Below are positions 34,664 through 50,498 of a stretch of DNA of 64,000 nucleotides, in pieces (within the stretch, counting starts at the first letter, position 1; each line of letters begins with the position of its first letter). The position numbers and the translations under genes are program-made. This DNA is from an uncultured Pseudomonadota bacterium (lineage in GTDB: Bacteria; Oederibacteriota; Muellerivitia; Muellerivitales; Muellerivitaceae). The stretch lies in contig CAVYRH010000005.1 of the NCBI GenBank assembly GCA_963770835.1, forward strand, positions 64,001-128,000, read 5' to 3'. The notes beneath the pieces are model-generated. The model was not told where the DNA came from and made no database searches. It was given only the letters and a program-made list of their open reading frames with translations.

Positions 34664-35271
34664 TGGCCGAGGAGCATTGACCGAAAATCCACCGTCCACC
34701 TTCTTCGAAAAAATTCTGCATTTCTATTTCGAATTTCTGCACTAAAGTGGGGAAGAATAAAAATTTTAAAAAATCGGGAAAACGGTGCACGGAGAAAAAA
34801 ACGAGTTTGCCCTTTACCATTCACTGAAATGAAAGAGTAAAACGATCCTTAAGTTCTTTCCGTTTGTAACAAACTTTCCATCCTTATTCCATCTCGTATA
34901 ATTTAATCAACGAAGGGTGCTTTGCTCAAAGGGCTCTTCGAAGGTTTTTTCCACCGAATCCGCCTCCGGAAAAAACTCCACAAGTCTTACGTTCCGAAAG
35001 CAGGAGTGTCCATTGCCTTGGGCGCTCCCCCCCCAACCTAAAAAACATCCGATCTCAGCCGACCATGAACGGCTGACCGCCTAGGTTCCTCCATCGCCCT
35101 TGAATGCTCGTTGCTGGAATCCAAAGGTTTCTGATTTTTTACTCACAGGAATCTGGCCTGTCCCCGGGATGAAACCCGCTTGAAAAGCCAAACCCAAAGG
35201 GATTTTCCACGTCCCCTGGGAAAAACGATTTGAGCCATTCTTCGCTAAGTACAGGAAAAGAGGGCCTTTCC

Positions 35272-38200
35272 ATGCTGAAGAACAACGCCTTTTCGGTGAG
35301 ACGAGTTCGTTTTGTTTACCGCCTTTTTAGGCTGAAAACCTTCCGGCTTCTTTTGTGGGCGGTAGGGCTTCTTTGCGGCCTTCCGGAGGCCGCCGAAGCC
35401 GCTACCTCCTTGTGGCAGCCGATTCCGTTGGTGACACAGGGTAGTTTAAGCGCAGGCAACAGCGGGGGTGAAGGTTGCCAGGTGGTCCAAAACCTCGCCA
35501 TCGATTCCACGGGGACCTTTCTCATGATGGGAACGGATGTGGGGGGGATCTTTCGTAGCACCAACGGGGGAGCCAACTGGCAGCCTGCGGATGTGGGCTA
35601 TGCTCCCCGGGGAGCCTGTGCCTTCGCTATCGATCCCAATAACAACCAGCGAGTTTTGGCTGTGGGGGATAACTCAGGCGCCCAGTCCTGGAACGGCCTC
35701 TGGCTTTCCACCACCCAAGCAGCCTCCTGGAGTCCGGTGTTGCAGAAGAACATTCAGGGGTCGGGAACCTACCACGACTCGGTGGCCTTCGACGCCTCCA
35801 GCGGAACGCTGTCGGGGGGTGTCAGCATGAGCGCTGTGGCCTATTGGGTGAACTACTCGGACGGGGGTGGGGGACTTTGGAAATCCACCGACGGGGGGAA
35901 CACCTGGAGTGAAATCCAAACTAATTTTTCCGACGGCATCGTGAAGGTGAACCCCTCCACTGGGGCGGTGTACGTCGCCACAGCAAACGGATTTTATTTG
36001 AGCACTAACGGAGGATCAAGTTTCACCCAAGTCGTGACGGGCTCTGTCCTGGGGTTGGATGTGATTGCCACTCAACCCAACAATGTCTACATAAATGAGA
36101 CGAACGGAGTCTATGTTTCCACCAACGCGGGTGCCAGTTTCACCAAGCTGGCTAGCACGGGCCTTCCCACCACGGACTCGCCGGGCCTGAGGAATCTCAA
36201 GGTCAGCCCGGCCAACTCTAACAACATGCTTATTGACGACGACCAAGGTTCCTATACTTCCCAGAACTATTATTACTCCACCAACGGGGGGGCCAGTTGG
36301 TCGGCCTGTTCCTTGAACTCCTCTCAAAGCTTCATCCCCATGAACACGCGGGAGTGGCTCTTTGTGTGGAGCCCCACCAATGCCAACCAGGCCTGGACCT
36401 GCGGCGGGGATTTCATTAGCGAGACCGCCAACGCCGGAGCGAATTTTACCTGGGCCGCCAACGGCTATAATGACTTCACCTGCACGGGCTACTTCAATTT
36501 CAACCCGCAGAACCCCAACCTGCTCCTGGTGACCAGCCAGGACTACAACTCAGCCTTCACGGCCGCCGCTACGGCTTCCTCCCCCGCTTGGCAATACCTG
36601 AACGTTTCGGGTCAGGGATGGGGGGGCTTCACCTATGGCGGCTATGCCCTGAGCTCGACCGTCTTTGCGGCGGGCAACGCGCCCAGTTGGGGGGCGGCGG
36701 CCACCCTGATGGTTTCCACCAACGGCGGAAGCAGCTTCAGTAACACCGGCTTGGTGGGAAACAACACCCAGGCGGCTTGTGGGGACCCGGTTTCCGCCAC
36801 TGTGGCTTTCTGGGACCAGTACCGCACCATCAACGGCGGATCTAGTTGGAGCGCGATGAGCGCCTGCGACGGGGTCTTCACCTACAACTCCAACCCCTCG
36901 GGAAGTTTCGAGCTATATGGGTCCAAGGGGTCCGAGGTGGTCAAGTCCACGGACCACGGCAATAGCTGGACCAACGTGGTGGGGGTCAATTCCACCGTCA
37001 TCGATATTGCCTGCGACTGGAAGAATAGCCAGCTCTATGTGGTGGATTCCCAGGGAGACCTTTTCACCTCGCCCTTGACGGGAGGCACCGCCACAATGAT
37101 CACTTCACGCCTGGCCACCGACAATGAGGGCAACCAGGGGGCCTATTCGGTGGCGGTCGATCCCGTCGACCCGGATATCGTCTACACGGCTTGGACAGGG
37201 AACAGCTACATCAGCAGCCAAGCCGTAAGGCGCTCCACGGACGCGGGCAAGACCTGGACGCCCTTGACGATGCAACCGGGGGACACGGGCCTGGACGGGG
37301 GCCGGGAATCGGAATGCGTGCGAGTGAACCCGACCACCCGGTATCTTTATTCCACGGGCTCCTGTTTTGGGGTCTGGAAATATCCCCCACCGGCAAGCGG
37401 GTCGCCTACCCCGGTGGCCACAGCCACGGCCACCAACTTGAACGGTTATACCGCGACACCCACTCCCACGCGAACTTCCACTTTGACGGCTACCGCCACC
37501 AAGACGCTGACCTCCACACCCACTTCCACTCTCACATCCACTTACTCGACAACACTCTCTGCCACCCCCACATCGACGGATTCAATGACCCCTAGTGCGA
37601 CAGCCTCTAAGACGTCGACGGCTTCAGGAACTGCTACGCCTTCATTCACATTGGTACGCACCAATACCCCCGTGCTCACCCCCACATTTACCTCCACTGC
37701 TACATCCACTTTTTCCACGACGCCCTCCGCCACCCCCACGTCGACGGATTCAATGACCCCGAGTGCGACGGCCGCCAAGACGTCAACGGCTTTGAGCACG
37801 GCTACTCCTTCGTCCACATCGAGTTGGACACCATCCCACACTGCAACACCTTCTTTCACTGCCACTTGGACGGGCACATCGACGGGAACATTCACCCCAC
37901 TTCCGATTCGGACCAACACCCCCACAACCACTTCCACATGGACGAAAACGGCGACAATGCCCCCGACACCCACTTCTACGCCAACTTCCACGTTCCCCCT
38001 CACGTCCGGTGATACCTCCACGCCGGAAATTACACCTACTTTGGAGACACCGGGGCACCAGGTGGGAGTTCCCGTCCCTTACCCCAATCCTGTTCAGGGT
38101 CCGGATTCTTCGGTTGAAGTCCGGATGGTATTTGAGGCGAGCGACACCCACGGCCGGTTGGAGGTGTTGACCCTGACTGGCCGCAAAGTCCGCGAGATGG

Positions 38201-38346
38201 CCCTGGGCACGGTCCAACCCGGCACCTTGACGGTGCCCTTACCCCTGACTGACACCCGGGGAATTCCACTGGCCAACGGTCTTTACTACCTGGTCGTGAG
38301 AACCACCACCCAGCAGGCAATCGGAAAAATGCTGATTCTTCGGTAA
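35272..38346 (+). CDS. GH74-like beta-propeller with long Thr/Ser linker and T9SS-like CTD
   Basis: Close paralog of 32042; signal peptide ending AAEA; CTD PYPNP...[10 protein letters not shown]......GKMLILR. Confidence 0.8.
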   Translation: MLKNNAFSVRRVRFVYRLFRLKTFRLLLWAVGLLCGLPEAAEAATSLWQPIPLVTQGSLSAGNSGGEGCQVVQNLAIDSTGTFLMMGTDVGGIFRSTNGGANWQPADVGYAPRGACAFAIDPNNNQRVLAVGDNSGAQSWNGLWLSTTQAASWSPVLQKNIQGSGTYHDSVAFDASSGTLSGGVSMSAVAYWVNYSDGGGGLWKSTDGGNTWSEIQTNFSDGIVKVNPSTGAVYVATANGFYLSTNGGSSFTQVVTGSVLGLDVIATQPNNVYINETNGVYVSTNAGASFTKLASTGLPTTDSPGLRNLKVSPANSNNMLIDDDQGSYTSQNYYYSTNGGASWSACSLNSSQSFIPMNTREWLFVWSPTNANQAWTCGGDFISETANAGANFTWAANGYNDFTCTGYFNFNPQNPNLLLVTSQDYNSAFTAAATASSPAWQYLNVSGQGWGGFTYGGYALSSTVFAAGNAPSWGAAATLMVSTNGGSSFSNTGLVGNNTQAACGDPVSATVAFWDQYRTINGGSSWSAMSACDGVFTYNSNPSGSFELYGSKGSEVVKSTDHGNSWTNVVGVNSTVIDIACDWKNSQLYVVDSQGDLFTSPLTGGTATMITSRLATDNEGNQGAYSVAVDPVDPDIVYTAWTGNSYISSQAVRRSTDAGKTWTPLTMQPGDTGLDGGRESECVRVNPTTRYLYSTGSCFGVWKYPPPASGSPTPVATATATNLNGYTATPTPTRTSTLTATATKTLTSTPTSTLTSTYSTTLSATPTSTDSMTPSATASKTSTASGTATPSFTLVRTNTPVLTPTFTSTATSTFSTTPSATPTSTDSMTPSATAAKTSTALSTATPSSTSSWTPSHTATPSFTATWTGTSTGTFTPLPIRTNTPTTTSTWTKTATMPPTPTSTPTSTFPLTSGDTSTPEITPTLETPGHQVGVPVPYPNPVQGPDSSVEVRMVFEASDTHGRLEVLTLTGRKVREMALGTVQPGTLTVPLPLTDTRGIPLANGLYYLVVRTTTQQAIGKMLILR
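37545..37812 (+). repeat. Internal duplication with 168-bp spacing in the linker
   Basis: GCCACCCCCAC.TCGACGGATTCAATGACCCC.AGTGCGAC at 37561 and 37729 (SATPTSTDSMTPSATA.KTSTA twice); boundaries approximate. Confidence 0.8.
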
Positions 38347-41893: not shown

Positions 41894-41929
41894 GTTAACT
41901 CTTTAACTATCATGGTTAACTCTTTAACT
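41894..41929 (+). repeat. Perfect 15-bp direct repeat with 21-bp period, upstream of a candidate promoter
   Basis: GTTAACTCTTTAACT at 41894 and 41915; partial copy CTCTTTAAC at 41843. Confidence 0.8.
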
Positions 41930-42019
41930 TTAGCTTGCAATACACCCCCCCGTTTTACTATCCTGTGCCTTCTTCAAAGCCCATTGCCGCCAAAAAAAAT
42001 ATTTTCCAGGAAGTGCGCT

Positions 42020-45000
42020 GTGTTTAGAAAAAATTATTCGTGGGTCCTCTTCGCTATCTTGATTCCGGTGGCCGTCCTCTTCTCGGGCTGTCCCTCCAAG
42101 AGCGGTCCAACTGCGCCCTCCAACAATAACGGCGGCGGACAAGCAACGAACACACCCACGGCCACTTTTACCCAGGCGAGTTCTATAACTTCCTCTCCTT
42201 CCTCCACGCCTTCAAACTCCCCGAGCGCTACACTTAGCATGACCCCATCTAAAACGGCCACTGCCACACCAACCAATACCTTTGCGGTCACCAGCACCGC
42301 AACCTCAACTGCTACAAACTCGACTACGTCCACGGCAACCAATACGGCTACCACCAGCCCAACGGCCACGGCCAGCGCCACGCCAACTAATACCTTAGTG
42401 GACACCGGCACCCCGACCTCGACAGCTACTAACTCAACCACATCCACGGTAACGAATACGACTACCGCCAGCCCAACAGCCACTGCCAGCGCTTCGCCAA
42501 CCAATACTTTGATAAATACGGGAACACCGACATCGACAGCCACCAACACGGCCACCGCCACGATGACTAACTCGGCTACTTCCACCACCACTTCGACGGT
42601 GACGGCTACGCCCAGCCAAACCACGACTTCAAGCCCAACCGCCACCACAACCTCTACTGCAACCTTGACGCCGACCGACACGGCCACCTTAACACCCACG
42701 TCCACTCCCTTGAGCATCCTCATCCAACAACCGACCGAGCCTTCACCAGCTTCCTACCTGCCCGGAACTTCGGGGGTGACGGCCATCGTGGTGGGCTTAT
42801 CCAACACGGGGAATGCCCCGGCGACCCTTAACTCCCTAGTTTTCTCCGTTCCTGGGACCGGGAACACCCAGGCCACGGTCGGTTTGTATAATTCCAACCT
42901 TATCCTGATCGGGTCAGGCTCCCTGCTCTTGAGTGGCAATTCGGTGACTATTTCCTCGGGTTCCTTCCTAGACGTTCTCGCACCCGGTTCGCCCGTAACC
43001 TACACCCTGATTTTTAACTTCACAGGCTCGGGAACAGGGTCCATCACCGCCAGCCTGGCTGCTTCCGGCGTGTCCCTGACGGCCGCAGATGGTACCAACG
43101 TAAACGGAAGCGCGACGGGTCCCGCCTTAACTATCGCCAACCCCTCACCCACACCCACCAACACGGCGACATCCACGCCCACGTCTACGGCCACTTTGAC
43201 CCCCACTTCCACACCGACCGATACCACCACCCAGACGGCCACTTCGACTGCCAGTTCCACGCCTACGGTCACCCTGAGTCCCACCGCAACCCCTGCCAAC
43301 GTGGTCCTCGTGCCGTACAACGAACCGCCTTCCTCTTCCTACGTTCCGGGAACTTCGGGCGTAACCCTCATGAACATGATCCTGACCAATGCGGGCACCA
43401 ATGTAGCCACTCTTGATTCTATGGCCATTTCTGTCACCGGCACAGGGGACGACTATTCGGACATTTCCAACCTTTCCTTGTTCAAGAATTCCAGCGCAGT
43501 CACCTTCTCGAAACAAACTTTTGCCGGAGAAGGAACCGACGCCGTTACTTTCCAGAATGGATCTTCTTTTGACACGCTCGCAGTCGGGGCCTCGGTGACT
43601 TACACCTTGACTGTCGACTTCTATAGCTCCACTTCCGCGTTCGGAACCTTCGCGGCAAGCGTCACGAATGCCGGGGTTTCGGTTACGAACGGAAGCGGCG
43701 TCGTGGTGACGGGCGGCGTCACCGGGCCGACGATCACTATCGCCTTGGCTACCTCAACCCCGACCAATACGGCTACCAATACCGCGACTTCCACGCCCAC
43801 GAACACCCCTACTTCTACTGCGACCTTGACCCCCACTTACACCCCGACCAGCACGCCTACCAACGAAGTGGTTTCTATCGTCCAGCCGACTGAACCCCCC
43901 AATAGCTCCTACCTTATTGGAAGTACTGGGGTGACCGTCTTATTGGCAAACCTGTCCAATCCCGGGGTTCAAGCCGTGACTTTGGCAGACTTGTCCTTTA
44001 CCCTGACGGAGTCCGGAAACCCCTGGATCAACGTCAACAAGGTCTGGTTGTACCGGAACGGGAACTCCAGCCCCTTGGCGGATGCCAGTTTCAATGTTGG
44101 GGCCAATACCGTCACTTTCTCGGGCGTACCCTTTGACACCCTGGCCGCGGGAGCCGCGGTAAGCTACACCCTAACCTATGACTTCTCTGGATCGGCTTCG
44201 GGTTCCTTTGCCACCAACATCAGCTCCGGCCAGGTCCAGGGCGGGTTGTCTTCGGGCGGCTCGATCAACGTAACCGGAAGCGCCACCGGCCCCACCATCA
44301 CCCTGGGTACCGCTACGCCCACTTCCACTCCCTCTTCCACACCCACTGTTACACCCACGGCCACTTCACCCTTCAACGTGCCTGACCCGAACCTGCGCTT
44401 GGGCATCCTGAAGTCCCTCGGTTCGCCCACGCCTACCTCGGGAACCCCGGCGGATATTCCGCTTTCAGTGCTGCAAGCCGCCGTCTCCATCAACGCGGAC
44501 AACTTGGGCGTCACCAGCATTTACGGGTTGCAGAACTGCAATGAGCTGACGGTACTTTCCATCCAAGGAGACCCAGTCACGGACCTTAGCCCGCTCGCGT
44601 CCCTGGCAACTTATAACAACCTCTTTGCGCTCCACATGGACTATAACGATGTGTTGAGCAACCTCGCTCCCTTGGCGAATATCACGAGTCTTGAATTTCT
44701 CGAGATGCGAGGGGGAACGGCCAGCGACCAGTTTGGAACTCCGGGATTGATCACCAGCATTGCTCCCCTGGCGAACTTGACTAATCTCCAGGAGCTTGAG
44801 TTCTCAAACCAACCCGTGACATCTCTGGCGCCCCTGGCCGGCCTAACCAAACTCACCGCCCTTTATATGATCGGCTGTAATCCGACCAGCGGTTTCACCG
44901 GAGGAATCGGGGTCGTTGCGAACCTGACCAACCTGCAAATCCTTTATGCTTCCAACGACAACATTGCAGATATCTCCGCCCTCACCACCCTCGTCAATTT

Positions 45001-45346
45001 GCAGACGGCCAGCTTCTCAGACAACGCCAACCTGACGACCATTTCGGCTATGGCCAATTGGAAGAGCGCCCAATCAATCGCCCTGGAATATACCGGCCTT
45101 CTTAGCGTGCCGGCCTTGGGTCAAATGGGTGTTTTCAATGGCCCCACAACCGCCCTTTCGCTGGATATCTCCAACAACCCGGTGACTGATATCAGCAATT
45201 TGTCGGTAACCACGGTGCCCGGGTTTAATAACAATGGATCAAACTTGAATGTGACTGGTGATGGAGCCACTGACCTGAACATTACAACCCAGATCAACGC
45301 GATCAAAGCTAAATACACAACTCATTTGACGGTCACCGGGCCCTAA
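42020..45346 (+). CDS. Lipoprotein with Thr-rich stalks, three repeated beta-rich domains and an internalin-like LRR
   Basis: GTG at 42020 with SD AGGAAG; lipobox LFSG-C; cap PDPNLR..I...LG; LRR units such as PLANLTNLQEL.F..N. Confidence 0.8.
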   Translation: MFRKNYSWVLFAILIPVAVLFSGCPSKSGPTAPSNNNGGGQATNTPTATFTQASSITSSPSSTPSNSPSATLSMTPSKTATATPTNTFAVTSTATSTATNSTTSTATNTATTSPTATASATPTNTLVDTGTPTSTATNSTTSTVTNTTTASPTATASASPTNTLINTGTPTSTATNTATATMTNSATSTTTSTVTATPSQTTTSSPTATTTSTATLTPTDTATLTPTSTPLSILIQQPTEPSPASYLPGTSGVTAIVVGLSNTGNAPATLNSLVFSVPGTGNTQATVGLYNSNLILIGSGSLLLSGNSVTISSGSFLDVLAPGSPVTYTLIFNFTGSGTGSITASLAASGVSLTAADGTNVNGSATGPALTIANPSPTPTNTATSTPTSTATLTPTSTPTDTTTQTATSTASSTPTVTLSPTATPANVVLVPYNEPPSSSYVPGTSGVTLMNMILTNAGTNVATLDSMAISVTGTGDDYSDISNLSLFKNSSAVTFSKQTFAGEGTDAVTFQNGSSFDTLAVGASVTYTLTVDFYSSTSAFGTFAASVTNAGVSVTNGSGVVVTGGVTGPTITIALATSTPTNTATNTATSTPTNTPTSTATLTPTYTPTSTPTNEVVSIVQPTEPPNSSYLIGSTGVTVLLANLSNPGVQAVTLADLSFTLTESGNPWINVNKVWLYRNGNSSPLADASFNVGANTVTFSGVPFDTLAAGAAVSYTLTYDFSGSASGSFATNISSGQVQGGLSSGGSINVTGSATGPTITLGTATPTSTPSSTPTVTPTATSPFNVPDPNLRLGILKSLGSPTPTSGTPADIPLSVLQAAVSINADNLGVTSIYGLQNCNELTVLSIQGDPVTDLSPLASLATYNNLFALHMDYNDVLSNLAPLANITSLEFLEMRGGTASDQFGTPGLITSIAPLANLTNLQELEFSNQPVTSLAPLAGLTKLTALYMIGCNPTSGFTGGIGVVANLTNLQILYASNDNIADISALTTLVNLQTASFSDNANLTTISAMANWKSAQSIALEYTGLLSVPALGQMGVFNGPTTALSLDISNNPVTDISNLSVTTVPGFNNNGSNLNVTGDGATDLNITTQINAIKAKYTTHLTVTGP

Positions 45347-45390
45347 CCGGTCCGGGCCGTTTTGCATTGTGAAGGGGATGATGAAGCCTG

Positions 45391-45422
45391 AAAGCCAGCC
45401 CACCCCGGCTGGCTTTTGTTTT
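45391..45422 (+). terminator. Intrinsic terminator
   Basis: AAAGCCAGCC-CACCCC-GGCTGGCTTT followed by TGTTTT. Confidence 0.75.
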
Positions 45423-45573
45423 CTAAGGCCAGAGCAGCCTTTGCAATGGGGGATAAAACGTTTGAGGCCAAAAGCAATATTAGCCCGAGAATATAGAGGG
45501 GCCTGACATCCTGAGGAGGAAGTTCATCAACCAAACGTCGTTCCTTTGGGGAGTTTGGGTTGCTGATTTGAAG

Positions 45574-48500
45574 ATGGTTATGAATCGAGAAAAAATTTAT
45601 CCGATCGCCGGGTTATGCGGCAAAAAAGCCTGCTTCTCCGTGGGTATGTTCCTGCTTATCGGGATGGTCCTTTTAGGCGCCGCGCCGGTTTGGGCACAGG
45701 TCGACACCCCTACGGACACCCCGACCGATACGACTACTGATACCCCCACCGATACTCCGACGGATACGGAAACTTTTACCCTTACCCCTACTGATACCTC
45801 CTCAAATACCACTACCAACACTGCTACGGATACCTGGACTGCGACCAGTACCCCCACTAATTCAGCGACCAATACAACTACCAACACTCCCACTAACACA
45901 ACAACCAATACACCGACCAATACCTGGACGACCACGAATACCCCGACGAACACTACGACGTATACAGCCACCAACACATGGACAGCGACCAGCACCGCGA
46001 CGAATACGTCTACAAATACCAGGACGGCTACAAACACTGCGACCGATACGGCCACAGATACTCCGACTAATACTTGGACAACAACCAATACGGCTACGAA
46101 TACCGCAACGAACACAGAAATTAACACCGCTACGAATACGGCGACGAATACCTGGACCACAACGAACACGGCCACCAACACTGCTACCAGTACACCCACC
46201 AATACCTGGACGGCCACGAACACCCCGACCAACACGGCTACGAATACGGCTACCAACACTTGGACAGCGACCGGCACCGCGACGAATACTGCGACGAACA
46301 CGTCTACAAATACCAGGACGGCTACAAACACTGCCACTAATACGGCCACGGATACCCCGACTAATACTTGGACAACAACCAATACGGCTACGAATACCGC
46401 AACGAACACAGAAACTAACACCGCAACGAATACGGCGACGAATACCTGGACCACAACGAACACGGCCACCAACACTGCTACCAGTACACCTACCAATACC
46501 TGGACAGCCACGAATACCCCGACCAACACGGCTACGAATACGGCTACCAATACTTGGACAGCGACCAGCACCCCGACGAATACAGCAACGAATACGTCTA
46601 CAAATACCCGGACGGATACAAATACTGCGACTAATACAGCCACGGATACCCCGACTAATACTTGGACGGCGACCAATACGGCTACGAATACCGCAACGAA
46701 TACGGCAACCAATACCTCGACGTCGACCAATACCCCGACGAATACAGCCACCGCCACTCCCACCAATACCCTTATCTTCACGGCCACGCCTACCGCTACC
46801 CCGACGGACAGTGCCACGGCTACTCCAACGGGTACTTTCACGAACAGTGCCACCTCCACACCCAGCTATACTTCCACGGACACGGCTACTAACAGTCCTA
46901 CCCCCTCACCCACCCTGACGGCCACCGATATCGGCACCAGCACCGCCACGGCTACGGCCACCAAAACGGCAACGAATACCCATACCAACACTTGGACAGC
47001 TACCAGTACTTCCTCCTCCACTGCGACCAATACCCCTACCAACACCGCCACGGATACTCCCACCAACACCGACACGGATACAGCTACCGGAACCCCCACC
47101 AATACCCTGGTCTTTACGGCCACACCGTCCGACACGCCCACCAACACCGGTACACAAACGCCCACAAGTACGCAGACCAATACGGCCACGAATACCCATA
47201 CAAATACCTGGACGGCCACTAGCACTCCCACCCTCACCGCGACCGACTCCCCATCTAAGACCGCCACGGCGACCGCAACCGATACGGGGACCGATACGGC
47301 TACCAACACCCCGACTAACACCCTCATCTTCACGGCTACATTAACTGACACACCTACCACCACCAATACGGCCACTCCCACAAATACCCCGACTGATACA
47401 GCCACGAATACGGCCACCGGCACTCCCTCCTCCACTGAGACCTATACCCCATCTAACACCACCACCAATACCGGGACTAATACGGCCACCAATACAACAA
47501 CCAATACCTTTGTCTTTACAGCCACCCCCACCAACTCGGCCACGAATACCCCGACGGCCACGGCTACTGGAACAACAACGAATACCGCCACCAGTACGGC
47601 CACTGTTACACCAACCCGGACGGCTACTAGTACGGCCACGTCCACGACCACCAAAACGACCACGAACACCCCCACGGCTACGGGCACCAATACCCCCACT
47701 AACTCCGCCTCTTCCACCCCCACATCCACCACCACCATTACTCCCACCCCCACGGCCACCTTCACTCCCACAACGACAGCCACCTCCACCCCCACCAACA
47801 GCGCGACCCAGACGGCCACTTCCACAATCACCAACACGCCTACCCTAACCCCCTCTTCCACCCCTAGTGCCACATCCACGGACACTCCCAGTGGTTCTGG
47901 AAGCTTTACTTACAACAATGGGTCGTCAAATTCTTTCGTGCCCCTTGGGTTGAATAACATCATCATTGCCTTGCCCGCCAACGCTTTTAGCGTTGGCTCT
48001 GTTCAATTCAACGTCAACGAATACGGCTCTGGGACAGCTCCCGCCATCGTTACCGGATCGGGAATTGAATTTTTACTCAACTCAAACTCCTATTCGATAA
48101 GTATTTTGGGAGGTGCCCAACCAATCGCCCCTGTGACATTGACCTTCCCCTATAACTCGGGTCAAATTCCCAGTGGTTTCGGGCAGGGGGACTTAACAGT
48201 CCTTACCAATAGCACCAACAGCAGCTCGGGCTGGAGCGCGACCAACGTCATTGGAATCACAAACAACTCCATCACGGTAGTCACCTCCCATTTCTCCTGG
48301 TGGGCGGTGGGCGTCCTGCTCCATGCCACCCTCACTCCGACTCCGGCCGTGGCTCCGGGAGCGGCTTACCTGAGCGCCAACGTCTTCCATGACCTCAGCG
48401 ACGCCCCCTTGACGGTCCAATACAACGATGCTGGAGGAGACCCCCTGGCCATCACTATCCATACCGCTACTGGCGCGCTAGTGCGGAATTTAACGGTGAC

Positions 48501-48636
48501 GTCCGGGGCTTCCAGCGCCACATGGGACGGCAAGGACGACGGGGGATCGTCGGCCTCCACCGGCCTTTACCTGGTGGCGGTGCGGCAGGCGAACGGCACA
48601 ACGATCCTCCGGAAAGTGGTGGTGCTCAAGCAATGA
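45574..48636 (+). CDS. Secreted Thr-x-Thr repeat protein with a ZU5/GPS-like HFS domain and a FlgD-Ig/T9SS-like CTD
   Basis: Signal peptide ending PVWA; roughly 730 aa of T-x repeats; LPANAF...PVTLTFPY...W...TSHFSWW; CTD SANVF...IHT.TG.LVR...WDGKD..G....TGLYLV......RKVVVLK; start could be 45580. Confidence 0.75.
45970..46710 (+). repeat. 294-bp (98-aa) tandem repeat, about 2.5 copies
   Basis: ACGTCTACAAATACC recurs at 46006, 46300 and 46594 with near-identical intervening sequence; boundaries approximate. Confidence 0.85.
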
Positions 48637-50498
48637 AACCACTTTTGAAACCTTGTAGAGATTTAAGGAACTTCCGGAGCCCTCTAATCGGCTTTTGGGC
48701 CTTGCTGTTCTTCCTGGTTCTGGGCCGGGGGGCGGTCGCCTCAACCCTGACATCAGGGGCTGATTTCCTTCTCATGACGACGGGCGCCCGGCCCGACGGC
48801 ATGGGCCAAGCTTTTAGCGCCGTGGCTGACGACATCAACACCCTGTCCTTTAACCCTGCGGGCTTGGGGAATATCCGTCTTCCGGAGATCGGGTACGGAC
48901 ACGAGGACTTCCTGGCGGACATTGGCTACGACTTCGTGGGGGCGGCGATCCCCCTGGGCGGTTCCGGGGTTTTGGGGCTGGGTTATTTGGGCATGGGGAC
49001 AGCGCCATTCAACAGCACCATTTCGGCCTCCGCGCCCGCCGTTTCGGTCCAGGACACGGCCCTGATCGTTGCTTGGGGAAAATCCTTTAACGGACTTCAA
49101 TTGGGCCTGGGAGCCAAATATATCGATGAGAAGCTCTATACGGTCGAGGGGAAGGGCTTCGGCTTCGATTTCGGGGCCCGTTACCAGGTGGCACCGCAAT
49201 GGACCTTGGCTGGAAGTGTCCTCAACCTAGGCCCGGGTGTCCAGTTCTCAAGCATGGAGCCGCTTCCGTTAGTGGCGAATGCGGGCATCGCCTGGTCCGC
49301 TTGGGAGAATGCTAAACACTCACTCACCTTGGCGGCGGATATTTCTTATGAGGCAACTGACACAACCCAGCGATACGGCCTAGGGGCCGAGTATTGGTAC
49401 GAAAAAACTTTCGCCTTGAGGGCAGGCTATCTGGTTAATTCACAGGTCGAGGGATTTACCGCTGGGGCGGGGATCCGGTTTTCGTTCTTCCAGCTTGATT
49501 ATGCCTTTGAACCCTACAGCAATCTGGGAACAGTTAACCGAATATCGGGCATCTTCCGTTGGGATGGGCCATGGATTCCGGGAGGAGACCTCAACGCCCC
49601 CCAAAACGTTGCTGTCCGCCAAAAGGACTATCAAACCCTTGAAATTAAGTGGGAAAGGGCTTCTGGGCCAGTGAAGGCTTACCAGGTGATGACCCGGCCG
49701 GTCAATGGGAATGACTGGACGGCCTCACAACCTGTTTCCAACACGGTTTACGACCTTAAAAACTACACTCCCGGAACAGCTTACAGCATTGCGGTGCTTT
49801 CTCTCGGGGAAGGAGGAGGCCGAAGTGAGCCCTCACCCGAGATCCGTTTTACAACTCCGGACCAAAAGTCGGCCATTGAACTTGCCCAGCAGGAAGTAGG
49901 AACGACCGCACACAAACAGTCGGTCTCCAACGGTTTATTTGGAAGGGTCGACGGGATAGGGCTCCAACTTTCCTGGGCCGTTCCCCGGGAAAGAGAAATT
50001 ATCGGTTACAACCTTTACCGCAAGTCGCCCGAGGGACAAACGATCAAATTGACCCGCGTACCCACGCAAAAGAACAAGGTCTGGGTGATCAACGCCTCTG
50101 ACTATTGGGGCTACCAGTGGATCGTCACGGCCCTGGAAAGTAAAGGTAAGGAAAAAACTATTGGAACTTATCTCTGGTTTCCAACGGCCGGAGACCTGAC
50201 CCAATTAGGCCAACCCTCGGGCCGCCGTTTGAGCGCTGTAACCCAACCTGACCGGGAAGTCTTCCTCTCCTGGGACGGGGAGCCCGCCGCTACCGGTTAT
50301 ATCCTGCTTTACAGCCCGGCCTTAGACGGTGTTTATGAGATTGAAAGGGAGATCAATACGGCCGATACAAACCTCTTGATGAAGGCCCCCGGGAACCAGG
50401 ACGCCTATTCCTTCATTGTTGTTCCACGGAATGCCGTCGGCGAATGGTATGTCCGCAGCCAGGAAGCCACGGTGACCTTGAGCCGGTCCAACCCTTAA
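48633..50498 (+). CDS. PorV/PorQ-family beta-barrel fused to C-terminal Fn3-like domains
   Basis: ATGA overlap with the upstream stop; FL....[17 protein letters not shown]...L.FNPAGL; LRAGY, DYAF; then APQNV...IKW...Y.V...[10 protein letters not shown]......S.PS and LSW...IIGYNLYR. Confidence 0.85.

Follow-up and report, generated by a model that had tools for sequence, protein, structure and literature searches.

In the window, by which we mean the whole analysed stretch of 64,000 nucleotides of DNA from a soil bacterium, a stalk protein with a T9SS-like C-terminal domain (CTD) carries, directly ahead of that CTD, a predicted ZU5/GAIN-B-fold, MAIN-like module with an HFS motif. We propose that this module cleaves its own chain between Phe909 and Ser910, that the stalk is then held by a β-strand, that the tail docks on the PorV-family barrel encoded by the adjoining gene and that pulling sheds the stalk; for the model as a whole we put the chances at about even.

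Architecture of the stalk protein and its locus

The stalk protein is composed, in order, of a likely signal peptide, a Thr-rich stalk, the ZU5/GAIN-B domain, a short linker and the CTD (Table 1). A preliminary description had placed a mucin-like stalk ahead of the domain, and the composition of residues 44-774 (731 aa; 48.8% Thr, 12.3% Asn, 11.8% Ala, 7.4% Pro and 6.6% Ser) bears this out; it follows from this composition that the ZU5/GAIN-B domain is the sole globular domain before the tail, as had been claimed, and the translation contains all the segments quoted around HFS. No Pfam or NCBIfam model matched the stalk, and there is no globular head at its N-terminal end. The predicted cut lies 22 residues upstream of the 91-residue CTD tail and would give an N-terminal piece of 866 residues (87.7 kDa unmodified) and a C-terminal piece of 113 residues (11.5 kDa). 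One contig from the public runs covers the motif, and no difference is recorded there; those runs contain at most 0.34 of the words, four of them cover pieces only, and the share in the single RNA run is 0.05.

The stop of the stalk gene shares an ATGA (48633-48636) with the start of the barrel gene, whose product scores 145.6 bits against NF033709 (cut-off 90), the PorV/PorQ family, and also has an Fn3 match, in agreement with the earlier reading of a coupled PorV-Fn3 barrel gene; its two closest relatives are labelled candidate division FCPU426, to which the genome is assigned through its kin. Both genes likely form a two-gene unit of their own, after an upstream terminator-like hairpin from a scan that returned 19 sites, mostly within repeats, versus 7.3 in shuffled sequences. 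Judged from the sequence, docking of a strand-tethered filament on the adjoining barrel is plausible and would fit the coupling of the genes.

Elsewhere in the window, a protein encoded at 35230-38346 (+) combines a BNR-repeat propeller, a Thr-rich stalk and a CTD of another subtype, without the self-cleaving domain. At 41912-45346 (+) lies the gene of a 1144-aa protein with a lipobox-like motif, three repeated globular domains separated by Thr-rich spacers and C-terminal leucine-rich repeats, in which no CTD was seen.

Table 1. Features of the stalk and barrel genes, in window coordinates.
Feature	Position	Strand	Evidence
Terminator-like hairpin closing the gene upstream of the stalk gene	45389..45418	+	consensus scan only
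Stalk protein gene	45568..48636	+	ORF, 1022 aa; start codon putative
Likely Sec signal peptide, ends ...PVWA, mature protein from Gln	45568..45696	+	by-eye reading
Mucin-like Thr/Asn/Ala/Pro stalk	45697..47898	+	translation, composition; NTWT repeats n=13
Predicted ZU5/GAIN-B-fold β-sandwich (MAIN-like), residues 779-917	47902..48318	+	AlphaFold model, Foldseek, VIA-align
His908-Phe909-Ser910; predicted scissile bond Phe909/Ser910	48289..48297	+	translation, alignment, structural superposition
Last β-strand (model strand 133-139), C-terminal to the predicted cut	48295..48318	+	AlphaFold model
T9SS type-A-like CTD (FlgD_ig-like), subtype tied to the adjoining PorV orthologue	48361..48633	+	profiles, tree, model
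PorV/PorQ-family outer-membrane barrel gene, C-terminal Fn3 region	48633..50498	+	profiles
Barrel part of the PorV/PorQ-family gene	about 48741-49568	+	
Pfam fn3 in the PorV/PorQ-family gene	about 49596-49847	+	

Predicted fold and cleavage site

The domain was modelled with AlphaFold2 on a 47-row alignment from a search of the phylum; that search listed 71 matches, spread over 35 of 99 genomes, and the rows derive from the 53 strongest of them, leaving aside the other 18, after near-duplicates had been merged and a truncated copy removed. The model (pLDDT 89.5, pTM 0.84) places HFS at residues 130-132, in the turn joining the last two strands, 123-128 and 133-139. Among the Foldseek matches listed (ranks 1-26) every one was a GAIN or ZU5/FIIND domain, four of them with E ≤ 0.001. 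VIA-align against 48,161 chains gave ankyrin ZU5 as the best match (Z 11.0, rmsd 3.2, 125-130 aligned), with CARD8 at Z 10.1, the CD97 GAIN domain at Z 9.9 and three unnamed axonemal chains at Z 8.2-9.6. The predicted structure thus upholds the ZU5/GAIN-B fold that the preliminary description had suggested, with a weak likeness to Nup98 (Z 4.3). Ankyrin ZU5 is not known to cleave itself and, since it supplies the top matches, the fold by itself does not show cleavage.

In the model the motif precedes the last strand, where the superfamily cleaves, and Phe131 is the end point of the alignment in 8 of the 25 top VIA-align rows. The NLRP1 chain in the superposition terminates at 1212, aligned with this Phe, and the GAIN rows presumably stop at GAIN cleavage sites in the same manner. 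According to the cited passages, the NLRP1 nucleophile is Ser1213, adjoining 1212 (PMC3210808). The motif also goes beyond chance, because His occupies the second most conserved column of the alignment and the motif falls in the final inter-strand turn of the model. By analogy with MAIN, PIDD and GAIN domains, we consider cleavage at Phe909/Ser910 likely.

In terms of classification, the domain shares with the ZU5/GAIN-B/Nup98 superfamily the predicted β-sandwich and an H-hydrophobic-S/T motif before the last strand at the known cleavage position, and with MAIN proteins secretion from a prokaryote, a predicted GAIN-B fold lacking GAIN-A and the order ectodomain, domain, C-terminal module. The helical GAIN-A and the following membrane segment of adhesion GPCRs are absent. 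The domain matched no family model when scanned with Pfam and NCBIfam; the Pfam ZU5 profile (PF00791) likewise missed it and found 3 of the 47 homologues weakly (best E 0.0035; atlas lead 0.87). PDB sequence searches returned no true relative of the domain, and a plasmid search returned no relative.

Conservation and spread of the domain

The H-x-S/T motif is present in 42 of the 47 alignment rows and in 37 of 41 domain copies of database proteins, a set that overlaps the first; HFS-rich rows were used to seed the profiles, which pushes both tallies up. In the Bacteroidota, the phylum of our Flavobacterium control, 25 of 301 sampled genomes match the domain profile and only 10 of 26 distant copies keep H-x-S/T. 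Of the 15 matches from a single-sequence search of representatives, 14 have a CTD-like tail. Searches of longer proteins by profile had little depth, with 16 and 9 matches in sets of 8000 candidates each, and the range given here covers two sampled phyla.

Of 45 domain copies in loci of the phylum, 29 have a CTD no more than 60 aa behind them, 6 have one farther away, 3 have none and 7 run off the locus. Domains found upstream of such copies include Kelch, NHL, SBBP and subtilase. The 29 copies with a CTD close behind support the reading of the CTD as an anchor, because this is the slot that the anchor takes in MAIN proteins.

The genome of the window (G000) encodes the domain twice more, each time with an HFT motif, in very large proteins that lack a CTD, at G000:C3:261161-273052 and C3:244455-256959; the latter copy is spread over two reading frames inside the domain, which denotes a frameshift or an assembly error. 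The same HFT-type motif is found in the database protein P0040, which has SpvB and FG-GAP domains. At eight loci (L032, L034, L055, L092, L093, L103, L104 and L111) the domain sits near the N-terminus with an intact H-F-S/T and without a CTD; in this reversed layout the released piece would be the C-terminal part.

Orthologous loci and the loss of His

Fourteen loci share an orthologue of the barrel (49-80% identity), and the domain occurs in five of them (G000, G002, G003, G004 and G020). It was not found adjoining the CTD in the other nine, one of them of the same genus; six of these were scanned with profiles (two on cut contigs), and for the other three the judgement was made on the C-terminal part only. 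The motif reads HFS in G000 and G002, EFS in G003 and SLST in G004 and G020, with His lost in 3 of the 5 domains, in two separate clades, versus 2 of the 42 other alignment rows. In three database proteins that share the CTD subtype, the motif is HFS, HLS and, in P0029, DFS. Conservation of the HFS residues, to which the preliminary description had looked for a check, therefore holds in the wider family but often fails among the close orthologues. Rough and partly saturated dN/dS values are higher in the domain (0.27-0.40) than in the CTD (0.14-0.22) or the barrel (0.04-0.14), which suggests weaker purifying selection on the domain than on its neighbours. The cleavage module looks optional at this locus, not essential, and the copy in the window may be dispensable. 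HFS, EFS, DFS and SLST constitute a natural variant series at one locus with which the importance of His can be gauged.

The cargo before the barrel orthologue is very different at L084, L085, L086 and L087, about 720 to 3400 aa long with the CTD subtype alone in common, which points to frequent N-terminal swapping.

Such a pattern could also arise if the domain were a structural spacer acquired by domain shuffling, which folds and cleaves or not, with release unselected and the motif decaying. The nine loci without the domain, the His losses there and in P0029, the weaker selection and a bare stalk without a head all agree with this, but H-x-S is kept in G000, G002, P0024 and P0030 despite a domain identity of 48% between G000 and G002, and EFS and DFS retain Phe-Ser. 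In the cited passages, NLRP1 and CARD8 cleave at SF/S and His mutants of Nup98 are only slightly affected (PMC3210808), so that loss of His need not end cleavage. We regard a mere spacer as unlikely, and it is the alternative that fares best against self-cleavage with force release.

The CTD tail and its pairing with the barrel

The CTD tail matches FlgD_ig over the cut-off (E 4.5e-9) and Por_Secre_tail and TIGR04183 below it. Its model is closest to the CTDs of PorZ (Z 10.6) and PorU (Z 10.1), with the unrelated Ig-like domain Bap tying at Z 10.0, the Ig-like fold being common. None of the sortase, wall-binding or SLH anchors is present in the stalk protein. With custom profiles, 125 CTD-ending and 24 PorV-like frames were counted in G000 (96% complete), and 14 of the 24 PorV-like genes stand directly behind a CTD gene versus 27 of 1756 other long frames. 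In the CTD tree, the 14 CTDs preceding this PorV orthologue fall into one 17-row group (support 95/70, or 98/94 with one more row), which also holds three database proteins of unknown context. Most of the CTD-ending frames of G000 have Thr/Ser-rich stalks, and many of its PorV-like barrels have long extra regions.

Secretion machinery of the genome and phylum

An SprA/Sov-like protein of 1994 aa is encoded at G000:C5:192794-198775 (L076:6795-12776) and scores 203.6 bits against TIGR04189 (cut-off 200); 92 of the 99 genomes of the phylum match this model at E ≤ 0.001, 7 of them over the cut-off. The homologue is missed by PF14349 and detected both by TIGR04189 and when the control protein itself served as query; a reading of the genome as lacking a translocon was dropped on these grounds. 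Searches that were positive in the Flavobacterium control found no PorU over the cut-off in G000, no GldM in four genomes and, for the proteins of the control's gldM region, no match except one unrelated. No C25 peptidase was found in the 31 genomes of the family including G000, and 8 of the 99 phylum genomes were positive; these eight are kin and not independent, none has the domain, and the three checked fall below the PorU cut-off.

G000 therefore has an Ig-like CTD at the C-terminus of its cargo, an SprA/Sov-like translocon and PorV-like barrels, and PorU and GldKLMN were not found by profile searches set against the Flavobacterium control, which divergent forms could escape. We file its secretion system as T9SS-like, not canonical. 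The SprA-like matches in 92 of 99 genomes, with neither PorU nor GldM found in G000, suggest that a T9SS-like system of minimal form is spread through the phylum.

The preliminary description had also considered removal of the CTD without a PorU sortase. As a general route this is rejected: the domain is present in one of the 125 CTD proteins of G000, and PorU is present in all five tested Bacteroidota genomes that have the domain with a CTD-like tail. For this one cargo the cut could still be a built-in CTD remover in place of PorU, with pieces that separate spontaneously and a constitutively released stalk. The absence of C25 matches throughout the family and of a PorU over the cut-off would suit this, as would the short distance from cut to CTD, but the same counts that reject the general route bear against it, and the main text of the MAIN preprint reports that cleavage products co-purify and co-elute (10.64898/2026.05.12.724683). 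We judge it quite improbable.

Proposed mechanism

In the mechanism that we prefer, self-cleavage followed by force release, the protein would be exported by Sec, going by the signal peptide. The domain would fold and Ser910 would attack the preceding bond in an N-O acyl shift, after which, as in MAIN proteins and the cited cleavage passages, the last β-strand would remain part of the C-terminal fragment and keep both pieces joined. Guided by its CTD, the stalk protein would pass through the SprA-like translocon and reach the cognate barrel. As no PorU was found, the CTD would remain as an anchor, and we lean towards its retention on the barrel. Force or slow dissociation would finally part the stalk piece of 88 kDa from its tail of 11.5 kDa. 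Release by force is possible, but here we lean slightly to the side of doubt, and the lack of an adhesin or enzyme head on the stalk to transmit force counts against it.

The anchor itself may be questioned. The barrel could be a mere shuttle, as PorV is described to be in Bacteroidota, with CTDs removed or freed by an unrecognised protease and the cut irrelevant to anchoring. A divergent sortase could evade the profiles just as the SprA homologue evaded PF14349, and we count the genome completeness of 96% in favour of this account as well. It is hard to square, however, with a dedicated barrel and a CTD subtype of its own across 14 genomes, and the domain directly ahead of the CTD mirrors the anchor position in MAIN proteins; we think it very unlikely. 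That the last strand, uncovered by release of the stalk, acts as a tethered signal on the barrel-Fn3 partner, an idea drawn from the Stachel of adhesion GPCRs and the additional C-terminal Fn3 region of the partner, is extremely unlikely, since neither protein has a membrane-spanning or signalling domain, the main text of the MAIN preprint reports an anchored fragment without signalling (10.64898/2026.05.12.724683) and at 9 of the 14 loci the cargo of this barrel lacks the domain.

Returning to force release from a CTD anchor, a wider version may be offered, which we would sooner doubt than accept: the phylum would have a stripped-down type IX-like system with an SprA-like pore, many PorV barrels and neither motor nor sortase, in which CTDs serve as non-covalent anchors on dedicated barrels and a MAIN/ZU5 domain before the CTD is a force-triggered release link. 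If true, the phylum would have a Gram-negative outer-membrane counterpart of the wall-anchored MAIN proteins.

Comparison with known systems

The closest parallel is with MAIN domains, a set defined by homology to a domain of B. subtilis YfkN, for which the main text of the preprint by Brogan & Rudner (bioRxiv 10.64898/2026.05.12.724683) demonstrates cleavage at HF/S with pieces that stay associated, describes the order ectodomain, MAIN, anchor and proposes release by force. The stalk protein resembles them in its GAIN-B-like β-sandwich, in HFS before the last strand and in its succession of signal peptide, ectodomain, domain and C-terminal module. It differs in that the anchors of MAIN proteins described there are sortase signals, wall-binding domains and SLH domains, whereas here a T9SS-like CTD is coupled to a PorV barrel, and in that its ectodomain is a bare stalk. 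The main text of the preprint mentions members in Bacteroides and has no occurrence of T9SS, type IX, FlgD or Por secretion; CTD-bearing members may be among its supplementary domain tables. Because such domains directly precede an anchor in the described cases, and here precede the CTD, there is a hint that CTDs are retained rather than removed in this lineage, which has SprA-like and PorV-like genes and no recognisable PorU or motor.

The passages cited from Zhang et al. 2012 (PMC3482391) unite ZU5, GPS/GAIN and Nup98 in one autoproteolytic superfamily, so that there is no real choice to be made between ZU5 and GPS, and name polymorphic toxins and large surface proteins of bacteria as carriers of ZU5 domains. 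The bacterial ZU5 domains described in those passages lie near the N-terminus of RHS toxins or amid adhesion and enzyme modules, without a T9SS-like tail or PorV coupling. With the eukaryotic ZU5/FIIND domains of ankyrin, PIDD, NLRP1 and CARD8 and the GAIN domains of adhesion GPCRs, the domain shares its predicted fold (Z 8-11) and the position of the scissile bond, but the stalk protein has no UPA, death domain, GAIN-A helices or 7TM region and the identity is 5-18%. Further work on the ZU5 superfamily in bacteria is said to have been done by Liao et al. in 2014.

With the T9SS of Bacteroidota the locus has in common a CTD fold nearest to those of PorZ and PorU, a PorV-family barrel and an SprA-like translocon, but in G000 no PorU, GldM or gldM-region homologues were found and there are 24 PorV-like paralogues. 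In type B cargo, according to the cited passages, the CTD is anchored non-covalently on a cognate barrel (PMC9143113, PMC12618676), of the PorP/SprF kind; the window locus is alike in linking the cargo gene to its own barrel and differs in that a type-A-like CTD is paired in the type B manner.

A literature search, mostly outside subscription journals, returned no paper joining a ZU5 or MAIN domain with T9SS and no description of T9SS in FCPU426 or its kin. The kind of domain is already known, from bacterial ZU5 in 2012 and the MAIN preprint of 2026; what is new is its CTD anchor and the overlap of its gene with that of a PorV-family barrel, which would carry the self-cleaving GAIN/ZU5 release link over from proteins anchored in the wall to the outer-membrane cargo of a type IX-like secretion system.
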